DNA from: Chitinophagaceae bacterium
Lineage (GTDB): Bacteria; Bacteroidota; Bacteroidia; Chitinophagales; Chitinophagaceae
Direction of reading: 5' to 3'
NCBI GenBank assembly: GCA_039921505.1
Contig: JBDSBR010000018.1
Span: forward strand, 1,233-65,232
Length of the DNA stretch: 64,000 bases
Part shown: in pieces, positions 8,075 through 18,118 of the stretch
Layout: every line of letters begins with the position of its first letter
Numbering within the stretch: position 1 is the first letter of the stretch
The notes under the pieces: model-generated
What the model was told of the DNA's origin: nothing
Seen by the model: the letters and a program-made list of their open reading frames with translations, nothing else
Database searches by the model: none
Program-made: the position numbers and the translations under genes

Positions 8075-10036
8075 TTATTTCAGCCGCACCCGGCCACTGG
8101 CATCCATTTCGATTTTATTCTCAGCCTGGAGAAACTCAAGCATCTTCCAGGCTTTTTCTTTCCTTACGCCATTGAGTTTAAGTAAAAGATCTTTGGTGTG
8201 CAATGACTCATACTTGACCATATTGATGATCCGGTGATGAAGCGTATCGAATTCTTCCTTCGTAAGATGAGCCGCTTTCTGGCGAAGGCAATTGTCACAG
8301 ATACCACAGGATCGGACATGACTATCGCCAAAGTAAGAACCAATGATGCGGCTACGGCAGGCGGCTTCTTCTTTTATATAGCGGATCATTTGTTTCATCC
8401 GCTGTTTGAATTGTTCCTTTCGTTTGTTATAGTCAACCATGTTGATCGAAATATCTTCCGCTTTGATGCGATCGCGGAGCAATAAAAGCTGGGGAACATC
8501 TTTCTGGGGATGGTATTCAATAATACCTGCCTGGTCTAACTGTAACAATTGTTTTTTTACTTCTTCCGCGCCTGTTCTCATCAACCCACCGATCACTTTT
8601 TCCGAAACGGGTACCGGCTGATCAAAGATCCCTTCGTAAGCCCGTAACAGGGTTTTTATAATAGGCTCAAGTTGCGGGTGTTCTTTTTCAAATCCGTAGA
8701 GGTAATCCTTATTAGTAATAAAGCCCGCTGTTGCCTGTATAAAGACCTGTTCGTTAAAAGCAAGCCAGCCTTCCTGTTCCAGTGTTTTCAGGGAATACAG
8801 GGTAGTATGACTGACGAGGTTGAATTTTTTTAAAAAATCAGAAATATCAAAATCATAATATTGTCCCCCGCCGGACCCGACTGGTATTTGAAGATAATTC
8901 GCCACGGCTTGGTAGATCTCCCTGATCGTATCCTGTGAAGGAAAACGCAGCGCAGCCAACTCTTCCAGTTCCTTCAGATCCCTTTCATCATATAATAATA
9001 CGGCATAGGATGTCTTCCCATCCCGTCCCGCCCGACCGGCTTCCTGGTAATAATTTTCGAGGCAATCCGGTACATCTGCATGGATCACGGTGCGGACATC
9101 TGCCTTATCGATCCCCATTCCGAAAGCATTGGTGCATACGATTACCCTGGTCTTATTATGGATCCATTCTTCCTGTCGCCTGCTTCTCTCTTCCTGCAAT
9201 AACCCCGCATGGTAAAAATTGGCCGGGATTTGCTGAAGCTGCAGCAGTTCGCTGATCTCTTTTGTTCTTTTCCTGCTTTTACAATAAACAATACTGCTGC
9301 CCGGTACTTTTTTCAACACTTCAATGATCTTATGGATCTTGGAACCGATATGAAAAGCACTGTACGAAAGATTGGGGCGTTCAAAGGATTGCCGGAAAAC
9401 TTCCCAACCCCAAAATGAACCTGCTGATTCCCGGTTTTCCGTGCTTAATTTTTCACAAATATCTTTTTGTACATCCGGGGTAGCTGAAGCTGTTAAGGCA
9501 AGCACAGGAATACCCGGAAGTTCTTTTCGGAGCGCAGCGATACGGAGGTAAGATGGACGAAAATCATATCCCCACTGGGATACGCAATGCGCCTCATCCA
9601 CAGCGACGAGCGTGACAGGCAACCCTGGTAAATATTCTTTGAATAAGGATGTCTCCAATCTTTCCGGTGAGACATAGAGGAACTTGCAATTACTTTCACC
9701 GGCTACTTTCAGGGTATTGATCACTTCTTTACGGCTCATACCCGAATAGATCGCAAAAGCCGTGATGTTTTTTTTCCGAAGGTTCTCTACCTGGTCCTTC
9801 ATTAAAGCGATGAGAGGGGAGATAACAAGACACAATCCTTCTTTCATCATAGCCGGTACCTGGTAACAGAGCGATTTGCCACCTCCTGTCGGCATCAGCG
9901 CCAGCACATCTTTATCATTGAGTACAGCGCGGATAATATCTGCCTGTAAGGGACGGAAAGATTCAAAACCCCAGTATTGATGGAGGATATCATGAATCGT
10001 GAGTCGTGAGTCGTGAGTAGGAGAAGATACCTGCAT
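8075..10036 (-). CDS. recQ: RecQ-family ATP-dependent DNA helicase (no obvious HRDC domain)
   Basis: MPTGGGKSLCYQ, AVDEAHCVSQWGYDFRP, LTASAT, YYQEAGRAGRDG, Zn motif CR...CGICDNC. Confidence 0.9.
   Translation of the reverse strand: MQVSSPTHDSRLTIHDILHQYWGFESFRPLQADIIRAVLNDKDVLALMPTGGGKSLCYQVPAMMKEGLCLVISPLIALMKDQVENLRKKNITAFAIYSGMSRKEVINTLKVAGESNCKFLYVSPERLETSLFKEYLPGLPVTLVAVDEAHCVSQWGYDFRPSYLRIAALRKELPGIPVLALTASATPDVQKDICEKLSTENRESAGSFWGWEVFRQSFERPNLSYSAFHIGSKIHKIIEVLKKVPGSSIVYCKSRKRTKEISELLQLQQIPANFYHAGLLQEERSRRQEEWIHNKTRVIVCTNAFGMGIDKADVRTVIHADVPDCLENYYQEAGRAGRDGKTSYAVLLYDERDLKELEELAALRFPSQDTIREIYQAVANYLQIPVGSGGGQYYDFDISDFLKKFNLVSHTTLYSLKTLEQEGWLAFNEQVFIQATAGFITNKDYLYGFEKEHPQLEPIIKTLLRAYEGIFDQPVPVSEKVIGGLMRTGAEEVKKQLLQLDQAGIIEYHPQKDVPQLLLLRDRIKAEDISINMVDYNKRKEQFKQRMKQMIRYIKEEAACRSRIIGSYFGDSHVRSCGICDNCLRQKAAHLTKEEFDTLHHRIINMVKYESLHTKDLLLKLNGVRKEKAWKMLEFLQAENKIEMDASGRVRLK
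9990..10017. repeat. (TCGTGAG)3 heptamer tract inside recQ 5' end
   Basis: Three exact copies at 9997-10017 plus degenerate TCATGAA; reads THDSRLT in RecQ. Confidence 0.85.
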
Positions 10037-14261: not shown

Positions 14262-15476
14262 ATGAGCCAGCAGAAACCCAAAATAAGTACTTCTTTCAGC
14301 TACGAAACATTAGAGGAGACACTGGACATCAAACCCAAGGCGGAAGGGATGATGATCGGGATACCTAAGGAAATTGCTTTCCAGGAAAACCGTATCGCAC
14401 TTACCCCCGATGCGGTGAGTGTGCTGATCAGCAATGGTCACCAGGTAATGATCGAACATAATGCGGGTGAAGCTTCTCATTTCCGCGATAAGGATTACAG
14501 TGAAGCCGGTGCCAGGATCGTGTATGACCGGGAATCAGTTTTTAAAGCTCCCTTGCTGGTCAAAAGCGCCCCCATCGTGGATGAGGACCTGTCGCTGCTG
14601 CAAATGAACCAGATCATCATTTCTCCTATTCATCTTTCGGTAATGAAAGCGGAGATATTGGAGAAGATGATGGAAAAAAAGATCACGGCCATTTCCTTTG
14701 AGAACCTGAAAGACGACAGCGATTCTTATCCCATTGTCCGCAGCATGAGCGAGATCGCCGGCAGTGCAGTTATGCTGATCGCCGCGCAATACCTGGGTTC
14801 GGCCAACCATGGAAAAGGCGTGTTGCTGGGAGGTGTCTCCGGTATTGCTCCTACCAAAGTCATCATCATCGGGGCTGGTATCGTGGGTGAATACGCGGCA
14901 AGAGCGGCTCTTGCACTGGGAGCTTCCGTAAAGGTTTTTGACAACAGTGTATATCGTTTAAAGCGATTACAGAATAATATCGGTCATCGTTTATGGACCT
15001 CCGTAATCGAACCAAGAATGTTATCGAAGCAGTTAAAGACCTGTGAAGTGGCCGTTGGTGCCCTGGGTTCCGAAACAGGAAGAACACCAATGGTAGTTAC
15101 CGAGGAGATGGTGAGCAATATGCGCCCGGGCTCCGTGGTCATTGATGTGAGCATCGACCGCGGCGGTTGTTTTGAGACCTCGGAGATCACCTCGCATGAG
15201 CATCCCATCTTTATGAAGTATGGTGTGATCCATTATTGCGTACCTAATATTCCTTCGGGTTTTTCCCGTACCGCATCCCAGGCCATCAGTAATGTGTTGA
15301 TGCCTTTGCTTCTCGAAGCGGGTGAAGAAGGCGGGTTTGAAAACCTGCTCTGGCACCAGATCCATCTTCGCGCCGGGATCTATCTTTTTAAGGGAGCCCT
15401 GACCAATTTTTATCTCAGCCAGCGTTTTGACCTTAAATACACCGACCTCAATCTTTTAATTGCAAGCCAGCGATAG
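14262..15476 (+). CDS. ald: Alanine dehydrogenase family protein (Bacteroidota type with N-terminal extension)
   Basis: IGIPKEI...ENRIALTP, MSEIAG, IIGAGIVG, DVSIDRGGCFETS, HYCVPNIP. Confidence 0.85.
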   Translation: MSQQKPKISTSFSYETLEETLDIKPKAEGMMIGIPKEIAFQENRIALTPDAVSVLISNGHQVMIEHNAGEASHFRDKDYSEAGARIVYDRESVFKAPLLVKSAPIVDEDLSLLQMNQIIISPIHLSVMKAEILEKMMEKKITAISFENLKDDSDSYPIVRSMSEIAGSAVMLIAAQYLGSANHGKGVLLGGVSGIAPTKVIIIGAGIVGEYAARAALALGASVKVFDNSVYRLKRLQNNIGHRLWTSVIEPRMLSKQLKTCEVAVGALGSETGRTPMVVTEEMVSNMRPGSVVIDVSIDRGGCFETSEITSHEHPIFMKYGVIHYCVPNIPSGFSRTASQAISNVLMPLLLEAGEEGGFENLLWHQIHLRAGIYLFKGALTNFYLSQRFDLKYTDLNLLIASQR

Positions 15477-15603
15477 AATATTATCGGGCATTGACACCGT
15501 GTCAAAAAATAATACTGGTTTCGTCACATATTCATGTTCAATACATTGCAATTTCAAAAATTCAGGCGAGGGCGTATATTTATGTGTTAGCCGCAATATT
15601 TTC

Positions 15604-16212
15604 ATGACACTTCCACCAAAATACAGTGACACTGAATTGCAGTACATACTTGAGTTAGACTCTCAACAGCCGGACAATTTAAACGAACTGTCATTTATTC
15701 AAGACATACAAGACAATGGACAAATAAAATGGCGAGTGAATCACTTTTTATTTAAAAAAAATCTTTTGCCCTTACTACTTGACAATTCGACATTCAGAAA
15801 ATGGAAATTTTTCAAATCATTAAATTGGTTGATAGCTTTATTCATCATAGGCTTTGCTATTTGGACAGGTGACTATAAAATACTTTTTTTCTTAATTGTT
15901 TTTCCTTTCTTAATCATTCCGGTTGACCATTGGATTTTTATCCTTAACATGACAATAATTATAGGAATTAAAACATTAGCCAAACTTAATATTCCTTATT
16001 TCTGGTTTTTTGTGACAGCAATTGTAGTTGGTTATCTCCTTAATAAGGCCATCGACGAAATGATTGAAAGAAAAATATTAAGACAAGCTCTTAACGACTG
16101 GACAACTTTTTGGAAATATTATTCAAATAAAATGATTTGGATAGACCAAACTGCTTTGAATAATGAACACCAATTATTGACTGACAAGTATCCTGAATTA
16201 AGAAGTTTATAA
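15604..16212 (+). CDS. Hypothetical membrane protein (cassette 1, 202 aa)
   Basis: About 3 hydrophobic segments; ATG 15604 lies 10 nt after the GTTAGCC site, so the longer 15460 ORF start is rejected. Confidence 0.7.
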   Translation: MTLPPKYSDTELQYILELDSQQPDNLNELSFIQDIQDNGQIKWRVNHFLFKKNLLPLLLDNSTFRKWKFFKSLNWLIALFIIGFAIWTGDYKILFFLIVFPFLIIPVDHWIFILNMTIIIGIKTLAKLNIPYFWFFVTAIVVGYLLNKAIDEMIERKILRQALNDWTTFWKYYSNKMIWIDQTALNNEHQLLTDKYPELRSL

Positions 16213-16218
16213 TACTGC

Positions 16219-16414
16219 GGCTAACAGGCGGTTTGGCAATATGGCGGGGCGACGAATATATTCTCAGCTTTTTGTTCGCTATTGGGCTTCAGTTCCAGCC
16301 GACGAATAACCCCGAGCAAATGAATAAACAATGAATTTTTATTTATAAATTTAGCAGCAGTTACGGGCTGACGATTTTCAAATACCGCCACATCGCCAAG
16401 CTGTACCGTTAGCT
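16219..16414 (+). other. attC-like recombination site 1 (~196 bp)
   Basis: R'' GGCTAAC, 5 bp, L'' GTTTGGC ... L' GCCAAGC, 6 bp, R' GTTAGCT. Arms GGTTTGGCAATATGGCGG / CCGCCACATCGCCAAGCT are complementary apart from transitions. Confidence 0.75.
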
Positions 16415-16423
16415 GCCATTCAA

Positions 16424-16999
16424 ATGCTCAATTCTCCTCAACCATACAATGATTGGAAAGATTTTTTTACAAAGAGATTAGTTGACACCGGAGTTTTCCG
16501 CTTATCAGACACTTTTTCAAAGAGTGACACGGACATTGAAATTTATTCTGCATTGAAAGGTGATCCAGACACAACAATTCAAATAGGTTACTTTTCTTCA
16601 AGGACACTGATTTACATTCACATATTTAATCCTGCAACTCCTGGTAAGAACAGGCAACAAGAGATTGAGCATTTATACAAATATGAATTTGATGCGGAAC
16701 TGCAATATGGACCACCAGGGCTTGACTTTGATGAAATTAATGTTGCAGGAATAAGCAATTATTTAGACCAGGGTTTTAATGGCAGTGAGACTGTATATTA
16801 TCGAAATGGCAAGTCTGTGAAGTCGAGACTTACGACAAGTTATTATCCTGACAGCCCACAAAGCTCAATCACTTATCATTTTCATCAAGAATCGTTTTTC
16901 AGGAAACTTCTGAATAAAATAACAGGTCGAAGCGAAAAATATGACGAAGTAAAGACTGTTGTATTGCATGATGTCTTTAGGGGACTAAACGGCAGCTAA
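16424..16999 (+). CDS. Hypothetical protein (cassette 2, 191 aa)
   Basis: ATG 6 nt after GTTAGCTGCC; TAA stop lies inside the R'' site GCTAAC. No family recognised. Confidence 0.7.
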   Translation: MLNSPQPYNDWKDFFTKRLVDTGVFRLSDTFSKSDTDIEIYSALKGDPDTTIQIGYFSSRTLIYIHIFNPATPGKNRQQEIEHLYKYEFDAELQYGPPGLDFDEINVAGISNYLDQGFNGSETVYYRNGKSVKSRLTTSYYPDSPQSSITYHFHQESFFRKLLNKITGRSEKYDEVKTVVLHDVFRGLNGS

Positions 17000-17126
17000 C
17001 AGAGACTTGGCAAAAGGCGGACTACGAACTTCGAAGAAACATTTGTGCTGAGTTTAGTATTTGTGCTTCGTATGAAACTTTAGTGCTAAACATCCCCTTC
17101 GTCAAGCTGCAAAAATCTTAAGCGCC
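16994..17126 (+). other. attC-like site 2, right end degenerate
   Basis: AGCTAAC-AGAG-ACTTGGCAAAAGGCGG ... CCCCTTCGTCAAGC-TGCAAAAAT-CTTAAGCGCC; CTT stands where GTT is expected. Confidence 0.6.
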
Positions 17127-17144
17127 AATTAATCCCTCTAAATT

Positions 17145-17957
17145 TCACCTTTTCACCGTCACTCTCAAAAAGAACGCCTCGATCTCCGTCTTATTCGGAT
17201 CACCGCTTTTGTTTTGACTGTTAAACCAGTCTTCCAGTTCCTTTTGCAGGTCTGCAGTTTTACCATTTTTCTCAGCAGCTTCAAAAGCATTCATCGTAGG
17301 ACCATAAAAATTCCTGAAATCTTCCGCGAATTTCGCCGGCGAATAATCAGCGCTGAAAACAAAAGGATCACGGATAAAGGAAATATTTTCTTTGGGTATG
17401 CCTGCCTTTCCAAAGCGTTCGATCACTTGTTCCTGTACTCCCCAGAGCATAGGACTAATAAATCCATCCGGTGGCGGCGAGGTATAAGCTGAACTGATCT
17501 TTAAAAGCTGCGAGGCAAAAGAAGGATCACCGGGTATCCAGTTACCCATCACGATCCTGCCACCTGGTTTTGTAACACGTACCATTTCACTCGCCACATC
17601 AAAGGGTTTTGGCGCGAACATGGCGCCGAATATGCTTACAACAAGATCAAAACTTGCGTCTTCCAGGCCCTGCAGGTTGGTAGCATCACCTTCCTGGATA
17701 GTAATATTCGTCAGTCCTTCTTCTTTGATTCTTTTGTTGCCGGCTTCTACCAGGTTGCTTGCTATATCAACCCCTAAAACAGTTGCCCCGGTCTTTGCTT
17801 CGGGTATGGCCGTGGTGCCGTCACCACAACCCAGGTCCAGTACTTTCATGTCCTTAGTTACACCGATCCTGGATATCAGGTCAGCACCGCTTTCACGCAT
17901 GGTTTCGGCGATCCGGGTAAAGTCTCCTTTTTCCCATAAAGCTTTGTTTGGATTCAT
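17145..17957 (-). CDS. Class I SAM-dependent methyltransferase
   Basis: VLDLGCGDG, GVDIA, EGDA, SIFGAMFAP. Confidence 0.9.
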   Translation of the reverse strand: MNPNKALWEKGDFTRIAETMRESGADLISRIGVTKDMKVLDLGCGDGTTAIPEAKTGATVLGVDIASNLVEAGNKRIKEEGLTNITIQEGDATNLQGLEDASFDLVVSIFGAMFAPKPFDVASEMVRVTKPGGRIVMGNWIPGDPSFASQLLKISSAYTSPPPDGFISPMLWGVQEQVIERFGKAGIPKENISFIRDPFVFSADYSPAKFAEDFRNFYGPTMNAFEAAEKNGKTADLQKELEDWFNSQNKSGDPNKTEIEAFFLRVTVKR

Positions 17958-18081
17958 GTTTTTTAGTTTTAGGGGAAGAAAATTACGAATTATCTGTCGT
18001 TTTCCAAGTTTTATCTAGAGATCAACTGGTTGATGTTCAATAGATTCAGGTGAAAGGAAAAAATATTTGAAAAAAATTAAT

Positions 18082-18118
18082 TAAACGTTTGTTTAAATTA
18101 AACAATTGTTTAGTTTTG
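18082..18118 (+). promoter_or_regulatory. Efflux-operon promoter with two overlapping candidate TetR operators
   Basis: -33 TTTG (18088-91), 19 bp, -7 TAGTTTTG (18111-18). TAAAC-N4-GTTTA at 18082-95 and 18099-112. Confidence 0.75.

Follow-up and report, generated by a model that had tools for sequence, protein, structure and literature searches.

The DNA analysed here is a 64,000-nucleotide (nt) stretch of contig JBDSBR010000018.1 (positions 1,233 to 65,232 of the forward strand) from the genome of a Chitinophagaceae bacterium, assembly GCA_039921505.1. We refer to the whole stretch as the window and number positions from its first letter. The segment 15500-17130 is, with high probability, an orphan array of two cassettes, without a recombinase of its own, that belongs to an integron-like system of Bacteroidota. 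A sequence-only reading of the window had proposed such a cassette-capture system in Bacteroidota, and the proposal is supported by the copies of the sites found elsewhere, by a linked recombinase, by the variability of the locus and by the footprint left at the cassette boundaries. The integron-like character that it had assigned stood; the array is not that of a classical integron, because the recombinase of the system is without the insert specific to the integron integrase IntI.

The array occupies an AT-rich island in which the guanine-cytosine (GC) fraction is 0.27-0.42, or 0.27-0.40 over 15500-17100, compared to 0.47-0.53 in the flanks. Both cassette open reading frames (ORFs) are AT-rich and co-oriented, as had been noticed from the sequence alone, and each cassette is made of one such ORF, promoterless-looking, plus a site of ~190 nt. 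The parts of the array, followed by the flanking genes, are these:

15500 to 15586, plus strand: orphan attI-like region, ending in the motif CGTATATTTATGTG|TT (motif 15573-15591, crossover G at 15586)
15587 to 16408, plus strand: cassette 1, running from TT in its opening GTT up to G in the GTT that follows, with its own attC-like site aboard
15604-16212, plus strand: cassette 1 ORF, a predicted membrane protein of 202 amino acids (aa)
16214 to 16420, minus strand: attC-like site 1, with the bottom strand as the folding strand
16214-16225: R'' of site 1, ACTGCGGCT-AAC
16227-16249 and 16384-16407: 5' arm and 3' arm of site 1
16408-16419: R' of site 1, GTT-AGCTGCCAT
16409 to 17119, plus strand: cassette 2, terminal site decayed
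16424-16999, plus strand: cassette 2 ORF, 191 aa
16989 to 17128, minus strand: degenerate attC-like site 2, with R'' = ACGGCAGCTAAC
arms of site 2: CTTGGCAAAAGGCGG, pairing with the 3' arm CCCCTTCGTCAAGCTG (17094-17109)
around 17117: probable R' of site 2, with a mutated core, cTTAAGCGCCAA (probable G to C change)
14262 to 15476, plus strand: ald (alanine dehydrogenase), a 404-aa ORF, the conserved left flank outside the element
17145 to 17957, minus strand: S-adenosylmethionine (SAM)-dependent methyltransferase, an accessory gene convergent with the array

The methyltransferase gene (17145-17957) was considered as a further cassette and rejected, since it is on the opposite strand, has a host-like GC fraction of 0.45-0.50 and has no flanking site. 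No recombinase gene was found near the array within the 64-kilobase window. [quoted passage not shown]

The ends of the two cassettes are marked by inverted repeats. GTTAGCCGCAATATT at 15586-15600 and AATACTGCGGCTAAC at 16211-16225 are reverse complements at 14 of 15 positions, while GTTAGCTGCC at 16408-16417 and GGCAGCTAAC at 16991-17000 agree at 10 of 10, and the latter match lengthens to GTTAGCTGCCAT / ACGGCAGCTAAC with one mismatch. These repeats lie where the sequence-only reading had placed them, except that the first of them, at 15586-15600, is one base to the left of the 15587-15601 given there. That reading had also put the stop codon of the second ORF (16424-16999) inside the end site of cassette 2, and we read this TAA directly at 16997-16999, within GCTAAC. 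The disagreement it had noticed between the two halves of site 1 is real as well: when the R' flank is read as its reverse complement (ATGGCAGCT), it is like the R'' flank ACTGCGGCT at only 6 of 9 positions. The start of cassette 1 (GTTAGCCGCAAT) is complementary to its own end (ACTGCGGCTAAC) at 8 of 9 positions, and the start of cassette 2 (GTTAGCTGCCAT) to its own end (ACGGCAGCTAAC) also at 8 of 9. Both cassettes begin with GTT followed by nine nucleotides and end with the complement followed by AAC. For 15-mers with at most one mismatch, the region contains two pairs compared to 0.17 expected, a number reached by 3% of 300 dinucleotide shuffles. The repeats of the window are thus, by themselves, just modestly improbable, and the case rests on the family of sites.

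This family was collected with iterated nhmmer searches and a covariance model, because genome-wide scans for the half-site pattern were too noisy. In the genome of origin (3.8 megabases (Mb), 100% complete) site 1 has 21-23 family copies, as counted by iterated nhmmer (23 stretches) and by the covariance-model search. About 13 of the sites make up one co-oriented array on contig C6 and two are situated at the end of contig C28; further singles or pairs occur on contigs C17, C38, C11, C34, C29 and C27, each beside co-oriented low-GC ORFs. A copy at C6:1478-1670 is 90.7% identical to site 1. We measured the AAC-to-GTT distance in 68 full-length sites of this genome and related ones: it varies from 184 to 196 nt in 67 (median 189), the one site with an insertion having 211; the 188 nt of site 1 fall within the family range. 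The covariance model detected 6-47 sites in each of seven relatives (congeners and family members), with the highest count, 47, in a 5.1-Mb chromosome, and the same sites stand at 33 of 80 related recombinase loci described below. Recurrence of the sites in related genomes, on which the sequence-only reading had made the cassette interpretation depend, is thus well documented.

We also observed that two complete genomes with one full-length recombinase gene each carry sites at many chromosomal places, at least 20 in Flavisolibacter ginsenosidimutans and at least eight in Phnomibacter sp. MR. In both, sites of the same strand tend to occupy the same chromosome regions, perhaps because of an orientation bias linked to the replichore. 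Beside the ~207-nt class of sites there is a shorter one, ~140 nt including flanks (e.g., G252:C1:1235413-1235555, in F. ginsenosidimutans), that is without ~60 central nucleotides, and site 2 of the window may belong to it. A weak match to the covariance model at window positions 8637-8764 (25 bits) is within a 653-aa ORF, on the opposite strand, and was dismissed as most likely a chance hit.

The sites share a conserved secondary structure. The ~200-base-pair (bp) spacer between the two ORFs, i.e., site 1, has a long imperfect stem that joins both its ends in the minimum-free-energy and centroid folds of both strands. For the family, 55 sites were aligned as bottom strands, a consensus was derived by RNAalifold, and the covariance model was built from the same alignment. 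The consensus comprises 22 pairs, and compensatory changes occur at 13 of these (12 of 17 among the stem pairs). Standard pairs fill 95.5% of the cells, compared to 73.1% in shuffles, and none of 500 shuffles attained the observed value; the covariation score was 0.563 compared to 0.166 in shuffles, and slid controls were 36-49% paired. The site ends, …RYYYAAC and GTTRRRY…, together with the inner arms constitute the conserved stem of the bottom strand.

The structure also favours the bottom strand. The same pairs that are standard in 95.5% of the cells on the bottom strand are standard in 84.5% on the top strand, and two invariant G·T wobbles exist on the bottom strand only, with C·A mismatches at these places on the top strand. 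Scored against the covariance model, site 1, itself a member of the training set, reached 166.7 bits (E 1e-37) on the bottom strand versus 12.3 bits on the top strand. Integron attC sites are recognised by an R''-L''...L'-R' palindrome with AAC/GTT cores that makes a hairpin in a single strand; this is what the alignment, the consensus fold, the covariation and the bottom-strand bias show here. No Rfam family matches the sites. When single sites were folded, the z-scores were insignificant because of the long central region, and the covariation over the 55 sites is decisive instead. Site 2 scored only 6.5 bits (E 1.3) with the covariance model, was not picked up by nhmmer, and had no stable fold (z = +1.9); it shares direct repeats with site 1.

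Within the central region of site 1 there are three GC-N-GAC-R motifs, GGGCGACGAATA, AGCCGACGAATA and GGCTGACGATTT, at 16251-16262, 16301-16312 and 16370-16381, respectively. Most sites have such motifs at fixed offsets from AAC (+25, +75 and +145). They are similar to a pair of GGCGACA direct repeats in the recombinase-linked attI regions (locus L009, 4566-4605) and are candidate accessory binding sites.

With the family at hand, the boundary pattern could be assessed over 44 cassettes delimited by consecutive site pairs. The complementarity between the start of a cassette and its own end was on average 6.84 of 9 positions (typically 8 of 9), compared to 4.04 of 9 between the two half-sites of one site (n = 67) and 3.60 of 9 for random pairs (n = 7134). 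The single non-complementary position is the same in nearly all of the 44 cassettes and is the mismatch behind the 14 of 15 in the window. Because the nine nucleotides after GTT complement the nine before AAC of the same cassette, and as in integrons a 5' end thus complements its own 3' inverse core, the cassettes were cut and joined at G|TT, in the manner of circles. Strand exchange at or beside G|TT between circle-borne sites explains the boundary sequences, which a dispersed repeat does not. The circular-cassette footprint claimed in the sequence-only reading is therefore statistically upheld. Moreover, a 75%-identical homolog of cassette 2, found in a six-site metagenome array, has the boundaries GTTACCTGCCAT...ACGGCAGGTAAC, i.e., a compensatory change.

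The recombinase was the other missing part. The sequence-only reading had left two options, a recombinase outside the window or a lost one; the first is correct and the second is not, as a candidate gene is present elsewhere in the same genome, on contig C28 (C28:116310-117563, 417 aa). Its product has the domains Phage_int_SAM_4 and Phage_integrase, with top scores on the XerA, XerC and XerD models. In a genome-wide search with TIGR02249, the integron integrase model, nothing reached the cut-off of 265. The best match, 163.7 bits, was this very ORF, aligned in two stretches with model positions 182-240 skipped. Aligned to the Vibrio integrase VchIntIA (PDB 2a3v), the C28 protein has 20 residues where IntI has 60; the IntI-specific insert is therefore absent. 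The best structural match of its AlphaFold model is nevertheless VchIntIA, PDB 2a3v (E 3.6e-15). The protein also has an extra N-terminal α/β domain of ~85 residues; the model of this domain is confident (predicted local distance difference test score, pLDDT, of 91), and no fold relative of it was found in the PDB (best E 0.1).

Downstream of the C28 gene, 89 bp after its stop, stands CGTATATTTAAGTG|TAAGC. Two direct repeats of GGCGACA and a TTGAAAATCAAT box come before this attI-like motif, and beyond it co-oriented cassettes and sites continue to the contig end. In general, the attI-like consensus CGTATATTTAWGTG|TT, with direct repeats upstream, is found 89-435 bp past the recombinase stop, directly before the first cassette. 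The window has an exact 19-nt match to this motif (C18:16805, i.e., window 15573) without a recombinase. The preceding 70 nt hold degenerate copies of both the GGCGACA repeat (CGTCACATA) and the TTGAAAATCAAT box (TTCATGTTCAAT); cassette 1 begins immediately 3' of the motif at 15573-15591, and the gene upstream is ald instead of a recombinase gene. A similar orphan exists on contig C17, where the order is motif, cassette, site, cassette. A tyrosine recombinase adjoining a similar array, which the sequence-only reading had suggested looking for, is thus at hand in the C28 ORF, behind which this attI-like motif and cassettes of the same orientation are found, in an architecture that recurs across Chitinophagaceae.

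The orphan attI-like head of the window array had been overlooked in that reading. The first cassette after the C28 recombinase has a core variant, GTA...TAC in place of GTT...AAC, at both its ends (locus L009, 4655-4672 and 5276-5290), a compensated change in the crossover triplet.

The recurrence was observed among 80 related recombinase loci (52-75% identity) from Chitinophagaceae metagenome-assembled genomes (MAGs) and isolates, with hosts including Ferruginibacter, Terrimonas sp. R1, Ilyomonas limi, Ginsengibacter and Lacibacter. The 33 loci that carry sites have up to eight per 10 kilobases. In 32 of these every site is downstream of the recombinase (the exception is locus L065), and all sites are co-oriented with it. 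The attI-like motif is found 96-435 bp past the recombinase stop in 22 related loci; many contigs break there. Full-length homologs of the recombinase with 35-57% identity occur in many Bacteroidia families, with named sources such as Flavisolibacter ginsenosidimutans, Phnomibacter sp. MR, a Cyclobacteriaceae MAG, Flavobacteriales MAGs and Sphingobacteriales; no Bacteroidales were among the homologs of this class-wide search that could be named. In Flavobacteriales MAGs with a host GC of 62-66% (loci L158, L159, L164 and L165), the recombinase homolog is followed by one to seven co-oriented ORFs of 31-42% GC, so that cassette composition appears to be independent of host composition.

The place of insertion varies among relatives, as one would expect from the cassette-capture proposal. 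While ald itself is 90-95% identical in same-genus genomes, its 3' flank (window 15477-18105) has a different content in each of nine such genomes, none of which has a site or an attI-like motif after ald. In one congener (G012), ald is followed within ~150 bp by tetR-tolC-hlyD, genes that in the window are situated past the methyltransferase; this ald-tetR junction is an empty site. The methyltransferase is absent between ald and tetR in this congener, and of 30 relatives only one had a homolog of it, which was situated elsewhere in the genome.

We also searched Logan contigs of four metagenomes. The locus was found in three rhizosphere metagenomes, in which the contigs break inside site 1, and the summed word depth over site 1 (16214-16415) was 30-60 times that of the flanks. 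The site family is very abundant in the rhizosphere community and fragments the assemblies. A copy of cassette 1, ~95% identical and without the ald flank, was present in an unrelated soil metagenome.

With respect to cargo, the two window ORFs had no matches in Pfam, NCBIfam or PADLOC. The family of the cassette 2 product has 81 homologs of ~191 aa, and all its taxon-named members are from Chitinophagaceae; further homologs of cassette 2 were seen in three other contexts, with decayed ends. The long array of this genome carries PEBP, α/β-hydrolase, SAM-methyltransferase, SnoaL-like, GNAT, β-lactamase-fold and SAP-domain proteins. An HNH protein is encoded in the first cassette after the C28 recombinase, and an NYN-like one in a C17 cassette.

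Several other explanations of the window have to be weighed. The array could be the remnant of a classical integron, a CALIN whose attC sites were served by a canonical IntI that was lost or left unassembled. Such a remnant would have the R''/L''/L'/R' layout seen here, with RYYYAAC and GTTRRRY as its cores, as well as the G|TT footprint, and the C28 protein has a Phage_int_SAM_4 domain with VchIntIA (2a3v) as its best structural match (E 3.6e-15). However, the genome is 100% complete and none of its proteins attains the cut-off of TIGR02249 (163.7 against 265), the insert is absent, and in dozens of genomes the arrays follow an Xer-like enzyme. The sites, moreover, are uniformly ~190 nt long with no obvious extrahelical bases, and hardly any canonical integron is known from Bacteroidetes (PMC9024848). 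We give a classical remnant very little credence. We regard as just as improbable that the sites are a dispersed intergenic repeat, such as a repetitive extragenic palindrome (REP)-like or miniature inverted-repeat transposable element (MITE)-like sequence, a terminator or a small-RNA gene, flanking AT-rich islands by chance, in which case the genes would not be cassettes at all. The many scattered copies (47 in the 5.1-Mb chromosome), the conserved central region and the 30-60-fold word depth in metagenomes would fit a repeat of this kind. It leaves unexplained, however, why the nine nucleotides past GTT match the far end of their own unit and not the adjacent half-site, why boundary changes in orthologous cassettes are compensatory, and why the sites keep a constant orientation to the recombinase gene and share a common attI motif; nor does any Rfam family match them.

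[quoted passage not shown] The architecture is the same, with a 5' XerD-like recombinase, co-oriented short genes of low GC and repeated intergenic motifs (doi 10.1101/471110; PMC12247911), and window ORFs without known domains are compatible with an immunity function. Against this, the long array of this genome has an enzymatic cargo (PEBP, alpha/beta-hydrolase, SAM-methyltransferase, SnoaL, GNAT, beta-lactamase-fold, HNH) and the host is a soil member of Chitinophagaceae, while close homologs of the rAID-1 recombinase have been reported in Bacteroidales only.

For the orphan array of an integron-like system, which we prefer, the following mechanism can be proposed. The C28 recombinase would act in trans, folding or recognising the bottom strand of the sites, and would excise cassettes as circles by recombination between two sites. 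The circles would then be inserted at attI-like sites, including the orphan ones scattered round the chromosome. The extra N-terminal domain might bind the GC-N-GAC-R repeats, both those of attI and those at the three fixed places inside the sites; this last step is speculative. Cassette 2 is probably fixed by now, since its terminal site 2 has decayed.

Some observations weigh against the preferred reading. Site 2 is degenerate, and the link between the recombinase and the sites appears in the sequences as an association. The window locus may be a fossil that is no longer active, given that it has no adjacent recombinase and that its attI region is partly decayed. The role proposed for the N-terminal domain is a guess, as the domain has no structural relative. 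Also, neither an excised circle nor a deletion joint was seen in the metagenome contigs; this is weak evidence, because contigs drop rare forms.

Beyond the window, we lean towards the view that Bacteroidota hold a second, IntI-independent class of integrons. Its features would be an Xer/IntI-like recombinase without the insert and with a new N-terminal domain, length-constrained bottom-strand sites of ~190 nt marked by G·T wobbles, a G|TT crossover, and many orphan attI-like acceptors (e.g., ald-tetR) served in trans by one recombinase gene. The gut branch of this class may be rAID-1. The system shows sequence hallmarks of integron chemistry, while its recombinase is without a feature thought essential for attC recognition. 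If the view is true, nature would provide a comparison that bears on the way tyrosine recombinases acquire the use of hairpin DNA, a large pool of low-GC accessory genes in soil, water and possibly gut Bacteroidota would be explained, and current integron finders would be overlooking a whole class. Cultured test organisms exist: Flavisolibacter ginsenosidimutans, Phnomibacter sp. MR, Ilyomonas limi and Terrimonas sp. R1.

Compared with known systems, the array has much in common with classical integrons and CALINs (PMC4889954, PMC9024848), including single-ORF cassettes, imperfect inverted-repeat cores (RYYYAAC/GTTRRRY), inner L arms, predicted bottom-strand-specific folding, a G|TT crossover and a putative attI-type site heading the array. 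Near-identical sites within a chromosome (cf. the Vibrio cholerae repeats, VCRs, of Vibrio), recombinase-less clusters and a mixed cargo of accessory enzymes are further likenesses. Unlike in classical integrons, the recombinase has no IntI insert, scores below the IntI cut-off, has an additional N-terminal domain of ~85 aa and is co-oriented with the array. Invariant G·T wobbles, instead of extrahelical bases, mark the strand asymmetry, and the chromosome has numerous orphan attI-like sites at scattered places. The sites are uniformly ~190 nt long (with a subclass of ~140 nt) and have a conserved centre with three GC-N-GAC-R motifs. Classical attC sites are about 57-141 nt long, and the default attC limit of IntegronFinder is 200 nt; the sites described here, at ~197 nt, are at that limit.

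The insert of IntI has been described as essential for integron function (Smyshlyaev et al., PMC8138268). By this defining test the system does not qualify as an integron, though judged from its sequences it resembles one in mechanism. Canonical integrons are almost unrecorded in Bacteroidetes, for which IntegronFinder 2.0 reports no more than In0 elements and one complete integron, in Salinibacter (PMC9024848). With Xer recombinases (XerC/D-dif, XerA, and the pdif modules of Acinetobacter) the enzyme shares the catalytic and core-binding domains, which are nearest to XerA, XerC and XerD; Xer sites, in contrast, are double-stranded and dif-like, ~28 bp long, with no long hairpins (PMC7399989). 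Xer enzymes have neither the extra N-terminal domain nor attI-headed arrays of co-oriented cassettes.

The closest described system is rAID-1 of Bacteroidales. Ross et al. (2019) described rAID-1 as recombinase-associated arrays in Bacteroidales, 'reminiscent of integrons', and defined it by architecture and immunity cargo, with site structure, crossover and orphan arrays uncharacterised (doi 10.1101/471110; PMC12247911). Membership of rAID-1 calls for a 5' XerD-like recombinase with 44% or more identity to BF9343_RS08045 of B. fragilis, at least two co-directional downstream genes with GC of at most 41%, and a cargo in which orphan immunity genes dominate. Since rAID-1 is already known from Bacteroidota, a system of this kind is not unprecedented. 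[quoted passage not shown] The GC and co-direction features of rAID-1 are present in the recombinase-linked arrays (C28 and C6 in this genome; L158, L161 and L162 in relatives), and the window array has the same GC and orientation without a recombinase. A predominance of orphan immunity genes in the cargo was not found: Pfam matches in the long array are enzymatic, SAP or HNH, and the window ORFs have none. Thus, while rAID-1 is known from gut Bacteroidales with immunity cargo, the system seen here is from Chitinophagales, Flavobacteriales and Cytophagales of soil and water, with cargo that is mostly enzymatic or without assigned function. We found no description of it in the literature for these three orders. 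What appears to be new, as judged from the sequences, is a cassette system that is at once integron-like and rAID-like, has a putative non-IntI recombinase, and is seen in the window as an orphan array of two cassettes.

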